A DNA stretch of 42,359 bases from Candidatus Parvarchaeota archaeon (GTDB lineage: Archaea > Nanobdellota > Nanobdellia > Parvarchaeales > Parvarchaeaceae), in the NCBI GenBank assembly GCA_023261805.1, contig JAGDXV010000022.1:1-42359 (forward strand), given 5' to 3'. Positions 14,612-24,346 of this stretch are shown here, piece after piece. The notes beneath the pieces are model-generated. The model had not been told where the DNA came from. It saw only the letters and a program-made list of their open reading frames with translations, and did no database searches. A program made the position numbers and the translations under genes. Position 1 is the first letter of the stretch, and each line of letters starts with the position of its first letter.

Positions 14612-14698
14612 GTCGGGGTTGTATAGTGGTTAGTACGCTGCCCTCATGAAGAAAATTAAGAAAGGCAGAGATCGAGGGTTCAAATCCCTCCCCCGACA
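14612..14698 (+). tRNA. tRNA with CAT anticodon (probably elongator Met) and a 14-nt intron (about 14649-14662)
   Basis: Acceptor GTCGGGG/CCCCGAC, D-stem GTAT/GTAC, anticodon stem CTGCC/GGCAG around a 21-nt loop starting CTCAT, T-arm GAGGG-TTCAAAT-CCCTC, discriminator A, no encoded CCA. Confidence 0.85.
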
Positions 14699-23915: not shown

Positions 23916-23946
23916 GAATTAATATTCAAAAATAGATATCTTAATT

Positions 23947-24213
23947 GGCAGGCTAACCGGGAAGTCAGTCCCTTCCTGTGAGCGCAAATGGACTTTAGGC
24001 GCGGTGACTACATCGGCGAGGGACAAGATCCTCTAATATGATGGCAAAGCTATCGATGAATGAGGGCCCTACAGGGATGGAGCCGTTAGAAACCCGGCCA
24101 GGTCCGGAAGGAAGCAACCGTAACTGATGGTTTCATCGCTTGTAGACACTCCTTCATGAGAGAATGTTGCCACCCTCTGTAGGGGTTATTGCCTCGAACC
24201 GATGGTGCCTGCC
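23947..24213 (+). ncRNA. ffs: Signal recognition particle (SRP) RNA, 267 nt
   Basis: Terminal helix GGCAGGC/GCCTGCC. Alu domain with TGTGA turn and complementary loops AGTCC/GGACT. Helix-8 SRP54-binding motif CCAGGTCCGGAAGGAAGCAA at 24098-24117. AT-rich TATA-like sequence upstream. Confidence 0.9.
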
Positions 24214-24263
24214 TTTCTGAGAGGACAGTAAAGATATTAATTGAAATAAGTAAATCAATTCTA

Positions 24264-24346
24264 GTCAGGGTACTCAAGTGGTTACGAGGCAGGCCTGCTA
24301 AGCCTGTTGGCGAAAGCCTGCGTGGGTTCGAATCCCACCCCTGACG
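24264..24346 (+). tRNA. tRNA-Ser(GCT)
   Basis: Acceptor GTCAGGG/CCCTGAC, anticodon arm CAGGC-CTGCTAA-GCCTG, long variable arm GGC-GAAA-GCC, T-arm GTGGG-TTCGAAT-CCCAC, discriminator G. Confidence 0.95.

Follow-up and report, generated by a model that had tools for sequence, protein, structure and literature searches.

The window, by which we mean the whole 42,359-nt stretch of DNA that was analysed, carries an SRP RNA gene of the 7S type with a tRNA-Ser(GCU) gene downstream on the same strand (Table 1). The Rfam model of archaeal SRP RNA (RF01857, Archaea_SRP) matches positions 23946–24214 of the plus strand with 104.6 bits (E 7.6e-23) against a gathering score of 96.5, a margin of 8 bits, and the match covers model positions 1–317 of 317. 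A sequence-only reading of this DNA had placed an archaeal SRP RNA of 267 nt at 23947–24213; the Rfam match identifies the same gene, and that length is correct when counted from helix 1. The model of large bacterial SRP RNAs (RF01854, Bacteria_large_SRP) also matches, from 23948 to 24212 over model positions 1–256, with 90.3 bits against a cut-off of 60. The window gene is the only SRP RNA match in its genome, which comprises 546,589 bases in 33 contigs.

Table 1. Positions of the SRP RNA gene, its structural parts and its neighbours, in window coordinates
Feature	Position	Strand	Remarks
Possible archaeal TATA box, TTAATATT	23919..23926	+	~20–27 nt upstream of the RNA start; read from the letters
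SRP (7S-type) RNA gene	23946..24214	+	269 nt by Rfam (267 nt from helix 1); full-model matches to RF01857 and RF01854
Helix 1, 5′ strand GGCAGGC	23947..23953	+	Pairs with 24207–24213; consensus 23948–23952/24208–24212, extendable to 23947/24213
Helix 3 hairpin, Alu domain	23959..23977	+	6 pairs, 93.3% paired in 30 sequences; followed by UGUGA (UGUNR motif)
Helix 4 hairpin, Alu domain	23982..24002	+	4 of 4 pairs vary on both sides
Helix 5, 5′ strand	24011..24089	+	Consensus structure of 30 sequences
Distal helix 5, straight into helix 8	24069..24089	+	Pairs with 24124–24145; canonical RNAs branch into helix 6 here
Helix 8 core	24095..24120	+	CGG/CCG stem, internal loop CCAGG/AGCAA, stem UCC/GGA, GGAA loop at 24106–24109
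Helix 5, 3′ strand	24124..24204	+	Consensus structure of 30 sequences
Helix 1, 3′ strand GCCUGCC	24207..24213	+	Followed by TTT at 24214–24216
tRNA-Ser(GCU)	24264..24346	+	49 nt downstream of the SRP RNA gene; conserved neighbour, outside the SRP RNA

The sequence TTAATATT is a candidate TATA box for the SRP RNA gene, and in relatives the interval from about −33 to −20 holds an A/T-rich box such as CTATTTAT. The three T residues directly 3′ of helix 1 form a short run that might act as a terminator; a scan for bacterial-type promoters and terminators returned no intrinsic-terminator-like site at the gene and nothing useful, as expected for an archaeon. Of the 30 SRP RNA loci of the class, 14 have tRNA-Ser(GCU) downstream, with a gap that is sometimes only 2–9 nt. 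This close same-strand linkage suggests that the SRP RNA is co-transcribed with tRNA-Ser(GCU) and that tRNA processing sets its 3′ end. In two loci of the class, tRNA-Val occupies the position of tRNA-Ser, and among six Micrarchaeota loci tRNA-Ser adjoins the SRP RNA in two and lies ~900 nt away in a third. A 63-aa ORF with a TTG start on the minus strand (24086–24277), which lies over the SRP RNA and the spacer, is almost certainly spurious. Elsewhere in the window, a tRNA match at 14612–14698 (+) has 17 bases where the model has 3 positions, in the region of the anticodon loop, and is likely to be an intron-containing tRNA.

SRP RNA matches were collected from 40 relatives, and the window RNA was aligned with those of 29 relatives with loci (n = 30, from 16 families of the class). 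The consensus structure contains helix 1, a full Alu domain and helix 8, all of which the sequence-only reading had recognised. Four of the five consensus pairs of helix 1 vary on both sides. The loop of helix 4 (GGAC, 23990–23993) pairs with the loop of helix 3 (GUCC, 23968–23971), and this loop–loop contact is 99.2% paired across the alignment, with three of its four pairs varying on both sides. The RNA therefore has each of the Alu elements of RF01857: helix 1, helices 3 and 4, the UGUNR motif and the loop–loop pairing. At the opposite end, the helix 8 core falls on the conserved helix 8 block of the Rfam model at high posterior probability, keeps 98.9% of its pairs and is expected to be the site of the SRP54 M domain. 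It also displays what is common to the Rfam SRP RNA clan (CL00003), namely a helix 8 with SRP54/Ffh-binding internal loops and a GNRA-type tip that closes a long helix 5. At minimum free energy, the 269 nt fold into a single unbranched rod (−106.2 kcal/mol, z −3.77), and none of 200 shuffled sequences folds as well.

The part that is missing is helix 6. In the cmscan alignment to RF01857, the 40 model positions between the helix 5 5′ strand and helix 8 are represented by 0 bases (printed as [40] against [ 0]). In a canonical Odinarchaeota RNA, helix 6 occupies these model positions (about 142–181) as a hairpin of 18 pairs capped by a four-base loop. The window RNA has neither a GNAR tetraloop of this kind nor a three-way junction that joins such a hairpin to helices 5 and 8. 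The archaeal model thus deletes exactly the helix 6 block, in agreement with the absence of helix 6 proposed from sequence, and the bacterial model, which describes a full-length RNA that has an Alu domain but lacks helix 6, matches end to end and 30 bits over its cut-off, as the proposed Bacillus-like architecture predicts.

The covariation data support the same structure. In the RNAalifold consensus of the 30 sequences, helix 5 passes into helix 8 without a branch, and both sides vary in 64 of the 70 pairs. The sequence-only reading had paired 24069–24089 continuously with 24124–24145, leaving no room for a three-way junction; the two strands form 20 standard pairs (alignment columns 140–160 with 195–217), every one of which varies on both sides, and 91.8% of the cells are paired, a level that none of 500 shuffles reaches. 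Shuffle counts overstate significance because the sequences share ancestry, but controls in which the 3′ partner was slid by 1–3 columns keep the relatedness and point in the same direction, with 32–52% of cells paired as compared with 91.8%. For the whole structure, including the Alu loop–loop pseudoknot, 94.1% of cells are paired and 67 of 74 pairs vary on both sides, and compensatory change on this scale indicates selection on the structure. A miniature helix 6 built around CCC-UACA-GGG, which had been named as the hairpin that could overturn the unbranched fold, is 73.3% paired and is matched by 464 of 500 shuffles; it has no covariation support, and the rod stands. These results confirm that the SRP RNA without helix 6 is real.

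The same genome encodes the protein partners expected of an archaeal SRP, with one exception. Its SRP54 (439 aa, contig C33) is 67–70% identical to proteins of MAGs labelled Candidatus Acidifodinimicrobium, Parvarchaeota and Nanoarchaeota. Among solved structures, this protein scores best with those from archaea (P. furiosus, 336.9 bits; S. solfataricus, 317; M. jannaschii, 303), followed by eukaryotic (about 244 bits) and bacterial ones (217–235 bits); the NCBIfam models ffh and SRP54_euk both score below their cut-offs and do not discriminate. The FtsY receptor is found with 279.9 bits against a cut-off of 260.7, so that an archaeal-type SRP54 and its receptor are both present. The window DNA was found in three DNA runs, all from one hot-spring metagenome study, and in no RNA run. 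Taken together with the relatives of SRP54, this origin identifies the host as a Parvarchaeales-like DPANN archaeon from a hot spring.

The exception is SRP19, the remaining protein of the archaeal SRP particle, which was not found to be encoded in this genome. A six-frame Pfam search, which is pre-filtered, gave no PF01922 match at E up to 10 in the genome (88.7% complete). We also built two SRP19 profiles, one of 7 sequences and one of 154 sequences, the latter from an exhaustive profile search (1606 SRP19-like representatives) that was used in place of a single-SRP19 homology search with only 5 matches. In unfiltered hmmsearch runs over the 5626 six-frame ORFs of at least 40 aa in this genome, the best E-values for SRP19 were 0.5 and 0.3, on different ORFs. 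The corresponding value was 1.2 over the 5403 ORFs of the single-contig relative G145 (736,802 bp, 100 N), whose SRP RNA is 271 nt long. As a positive control, unfiltered hmmsearch gives E 1.5e-41 on a locus containing SRP19.

The same absence extends to larger samples. No genome has an SRP19 match over the Pfam cut-off among 41 relatives in the class sample, among 301 genomes of the window's phylum (where two sub-threshold matches contain stops), among 61 genomes of the phylum of an Aenigmatarchaeota-labelled genome or among 81 genomes of the phylum of a Micrarchaeota-labelled genome (0 of 80 when G428 is left out). In the control phylum, Thermoplasmatota, SRP19 was found in 55 of 61 genomes. 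The three DPANN samples are taken as distinct phyla on the basis of their record labels and because they share no genomes.

One line of doubt concerns the sensitivity of these searches. SRP19 might be present in DPANN archaea but too divergent for the profiles, and bind the tip of helix 8 or another site on the RNA. The Pfam search misses Sulfolobus acidocaldarius, a control that has SRP19, as well as 6 of the 61 Thermoplasmatota genomes, so that a very divergent SRP19 could escape detection; DPANN proteins evolve fast, which adds to this concern. We nevertheless consider such a protein improbable. The 154-sequence profile, run unfiltered, returned only noise in both the window's genome (E 0.3) and G145 (E 1.2), none of the 443 genomes from the three phyla has a match over the cut-off, and the main docking site of SRP19, the helix 6 tetraloop, is gone from the RNA. 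The SRP19-independent archaeal SRP that was proposed from sequence thus draws support from the coincidence of a missing helix 6 and an undetected SRP19 in a genome where SRP54 and FtsY are found.

We compared the length of the SRP RNA across DPANN and control genomes. Of the 41 genomes sampled from the class, 34 yield an SRP RNA match, and every one of these measures 263–279 nt. In the window's phylum, where the 121 genomes sampled are all at least 90% complete except the window's own, a match was found in 114; 109 of these cover the full model at 263–278 nt, and the remainder comprise three RNAs of 309–320 nt, one weak match of 140 nt and one that is fragmentary (two pieces). All 40 genomes of the Aenigmatarchaeota-labelled phylum have a match, 32 at 266–289 nt and 8 at 306–358 nt, and one genome of this phylum (G330) has the same 40-to-0 deletion of helix 6. 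In the Micrarchaeota-labelled phylum, an SRP RNA was matched in 38 of 40 genomes (37 of 39 if G428 is left out). The RNA is no longer than 280 nt in 33 of these, and just 11 of 40 Micrarchaeota matches reach the Rfam cut-off for RF01857. Canonical SRP RNAs from the controls (two Thermoplasmata genomes, Odin, Hades and Bathy) measure 312–331 nt, and one of the Thermoplasmata relatives (G540) combines a canonical 312-nt RNA with SRP19.

Judged from these sequences, an SRP RNA that lacks helix 6 is the rule across the window's phylum and at least two further DPANN phyla, where, beyond the 30-sequence alignment and a few inspected alignments, the absence of helix 6 is read from RNA length alone. 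Five genomes of the window's class (G034, G139, G131, G080 and G084), which are 96–100% complete, have no RF01857 match at E up to 1; in these genomes the SRP RNA may have diverged further, be split or be lacking. One of them, G034, is a single contig of about 0.5 Mb. Among the controls, the Hadesarchaea-labelled genome G331 has an SRP RNA of canonical length (locus L108, 331 nt, 162.9 bits), yet its Pfam SRP19 search is empty; this gap may reflect incompleteness or a search miss.

Two known kinds of SRP RNA resemble the one described here. The canonical archaeal 7S RNA of Methanocaldococcus jannaschii, Archaeoglobus fulgidus and Sulfolobus solfataricus belongs to RF01857, the best-scoring Rfam family for the window gene, and has in common with it helix 1, an Alu domain with the UGUNR motif and loop–loop contact, a long helix 5 and a GGAA-looped helix 8, together with an archaeal-type SRP54 as partner. 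The window RNA differs from it in lacking helix 6 (40 positions with the GNAR loop) and in being ~45 nt shorter (269 nt as compared with 312–331 nt in five controls), and its genome differs from canonical archaeal systems in that SRP19 was not found. The large SRP RNA of the Bacillus type (6S/scRNA) consists of the same parts as the window RNA, with an Alu domain, helix 5 and helix 8 and neither helix 6 nor SRP19. It is also similar in size, the scRNA of B. subtilis being about 271 nt long. In Bacillus, the HU-like protein HBsu occupies the Alu domain. The window RNA departs from the Bacillus type in its archaeal host, in its partner, which is an archaeal SRP54 instead of Ffh, and in its higher score with the archaeal model.

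These comparisons bear on the possibility that the gene is a bacterial SRP RNA of the Bacillus type that was gained by horizontal transfer. The end-to-end match to RF01854, with 90.3 bits and 30 bits to spare, is what such an origin would produce. The archaeal model nevertheless scores higher (104.6 bits), SRP54 is archaeal in type and has archaea as its nearest relatives, so that the bacterial host with an Ffh partner that goes with RF01854 is not what we find, the trait is spread over three phyla, and the RNA gene is linked to tRNA-Ser in 14 of 30 loci. The higher archaeal score, the archaeal SRP54 and the tRNA-Ser linkage indicate an archaeal gene without helix 6 and not a bacterial import, and we regard transfer as even less probable than an overlooked SRP19. 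That the missing helix is an artefact of assembly or binning, or the mark of a decaying pseudogene, could be suspected of a fragmented metagenome bin of 33 contigs, but it is next to impossible given the same architecture in more than 100 independent genomes, single-contig ones included, the compensatory change in 67 of 74 pairs and the lack of a second SRP RNA match in the genome.

There is precedent for an archaeal SRP that does without SRP19. Archaeal SRP54 binds 7S RNA in vitro without SRP19, and Haloferax volcanii is viable without SRP19 (PMC2905702, PMC6098224). The SRP19-deleted H. volcanii and the SRP19-free reconstitutions resemble what we propose here in that they show an archaeal SRP54–RNA particle to be able to assemble and work without SRP19. 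They differ from it in that their RNA keeps helix 6, which itself clamps helix 8, and in that the SRP19-free state is produced by deletion or in vitro, whereas in DPANN it appears to be the natural state of whole phyla.

Taken together, the data favour the reading that the window contains a functional DPANN SRP RNA gene without helix 6, whose RNA is bound by SRP54 directly at helix 8 with no SRP19, and we put the probability of this reading at roughly 0.87. The particle would most likely be an archaeal SRP with a bacterial-style large domain, composed of two parts, SRP54 and RNA. In such a particle, helix 5 would stack straight into helix 8, as it does in the large bacterial SRP RNAs of the Bacillus type, the M domain of the archaeal-type SRP54 would bind helix 8 directly, and the particle would meet FtsY at the membrane as usual. 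SRP19 would play no part, because the protein and its main docking site on the RNA, helix 6, are both absent. We infer the expression, ends and function of the RNA, like the direct binding of SRP54, from sequence; for the direct binding, the grounds are the conserved helix 8 block, the bacterial precedent and the SRP19-free work (PMC2905702, PMC6098224). Conservation of the Alu domain points to a retained contact with the elongation-factor site of the ribosome.

The literature presents a different picture of archaeal SRPs. In its available sections, a 2010 review (PMC2905702) reports SRP19 genes from every archaeal subgroup and describes SRP19 as occurring together with helix 6, and these sections do not mention Nanoarchaeota. 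The DPANN genome papers, in the portions available, name only SRP54 and FtsY and make no comment on SRP19. Our search of the full-text literature, with subscription journals and large supplementary tables mostly outside its scope, came upon no account of archaeal SRP RNAs that lack helix 6 or of DPANN archaea without SRP19. The supplements of PMC6349945 and PMC7414124, apart from their large gene tables, contain no SRP19 entry, and a silent entry in a presence/absence table may exist. What seems to be new here is the lineage-wide occurrence in DPANN of an SRP RNA without helix 6; the SRP RNA itself is of a known kind.

How this state arose can be read in two ways; the word 'reduced', which the sequence-only reading applied to this SRP, presupposes a loss. 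The SRP without helix 6 and SRP19 may be the original archaeal one, with a Bacillus-type RNA that DPANN archaea have retained from the ancestor they share with bacteria, in which case helix 6 and SRP19 would be a later invention of the other archaea that was passed on to eukaryotes. This reading fits because the trait is common to three DPANN phyla and because RF01854 matches end to end, but we hold it to be rather unlikely as it stands; a single early loss would fit the data equally well. If the ancestral reading were true, helix 6 would provide a rare structural character for the archaeal root and for the question of whether DPANN is one clade.

Several consequences follow. Much of archaeal diversity seems to operate a two-part SRP, where reviews describe a particle of 7S RNA, SRP19 and SRP54 (PMC2905702). 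These lineages offer a natural test of the roles of helix 6 and SRP19. The absence of helix 6 explains why the SRP RNA frequently goes unannotated in DPANN bins, and SRP19 is unsuitable as a universal archaeal completeness marker for DPANN genomes. The trait also supplies a discrete character for the debates on DPANN monophyly and the archaeal root.

Some of the relatives have longer SRP RNAs, and the extra length lies in several places. Among Micrarchaeota-labelled genomes, the RNAs L149 (G435), L150 (G434) and L147 (G405), of 293–300 nt, have an extra hairpin 3′ of helix 8 in single-sequence folds; for G435 and G434, cmscan places 31–38 nt at the position of helix 6, and folding assigns the additional hairpin to the 3′ side of helix 8. 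The hairpin sits where a 'helix 7' would, an element that archaea do not have according to the 2010 review (PMC2905702).

The three long RNAs of the window's phylum belong to one genus (L137, G078, minus strand 51–359; L138, G054, minus strand 51–370; L139, G122, plus strand 51–364; 309–320 nt). Comparison with shorter orthologues of the same genus (L140 and L141) places their extra 36–46 nt inside the 5′ strand of helix 8 and not at helix 6, in the context CCUGGUC/insert/AGGCC. The core of the insert is a bulge-helix-bulge in which a CUGG/CCAG helix separates 3-nt bulges, UCA and AGA, on opposite strands, and a cut after the second bulge base on both strands yields the exact sequence of the insert-free orthologues. 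In these RNAs, the SRP54-binding helix is probably interrupted by an intron of the tRNA type.

Six of the eight long RNAs of the Aenigmatarchaeota-labelled phylum were inspected (L272, G351; L275, G343; L276, G360; L273, G337; L277, G349; L274, G352). The place of helix 6 holds 0–2 nt in four of them and is deleted in a fifth; the sixth, from G352, has 81 unexplained nt there. The additional length of the others lies at the tip of helix 8 in three (33–41 nt), elsewhere in helix 8 in one (~39 nt) and in the Alu domain in one (108 nt). These extra stretches may be further introns.
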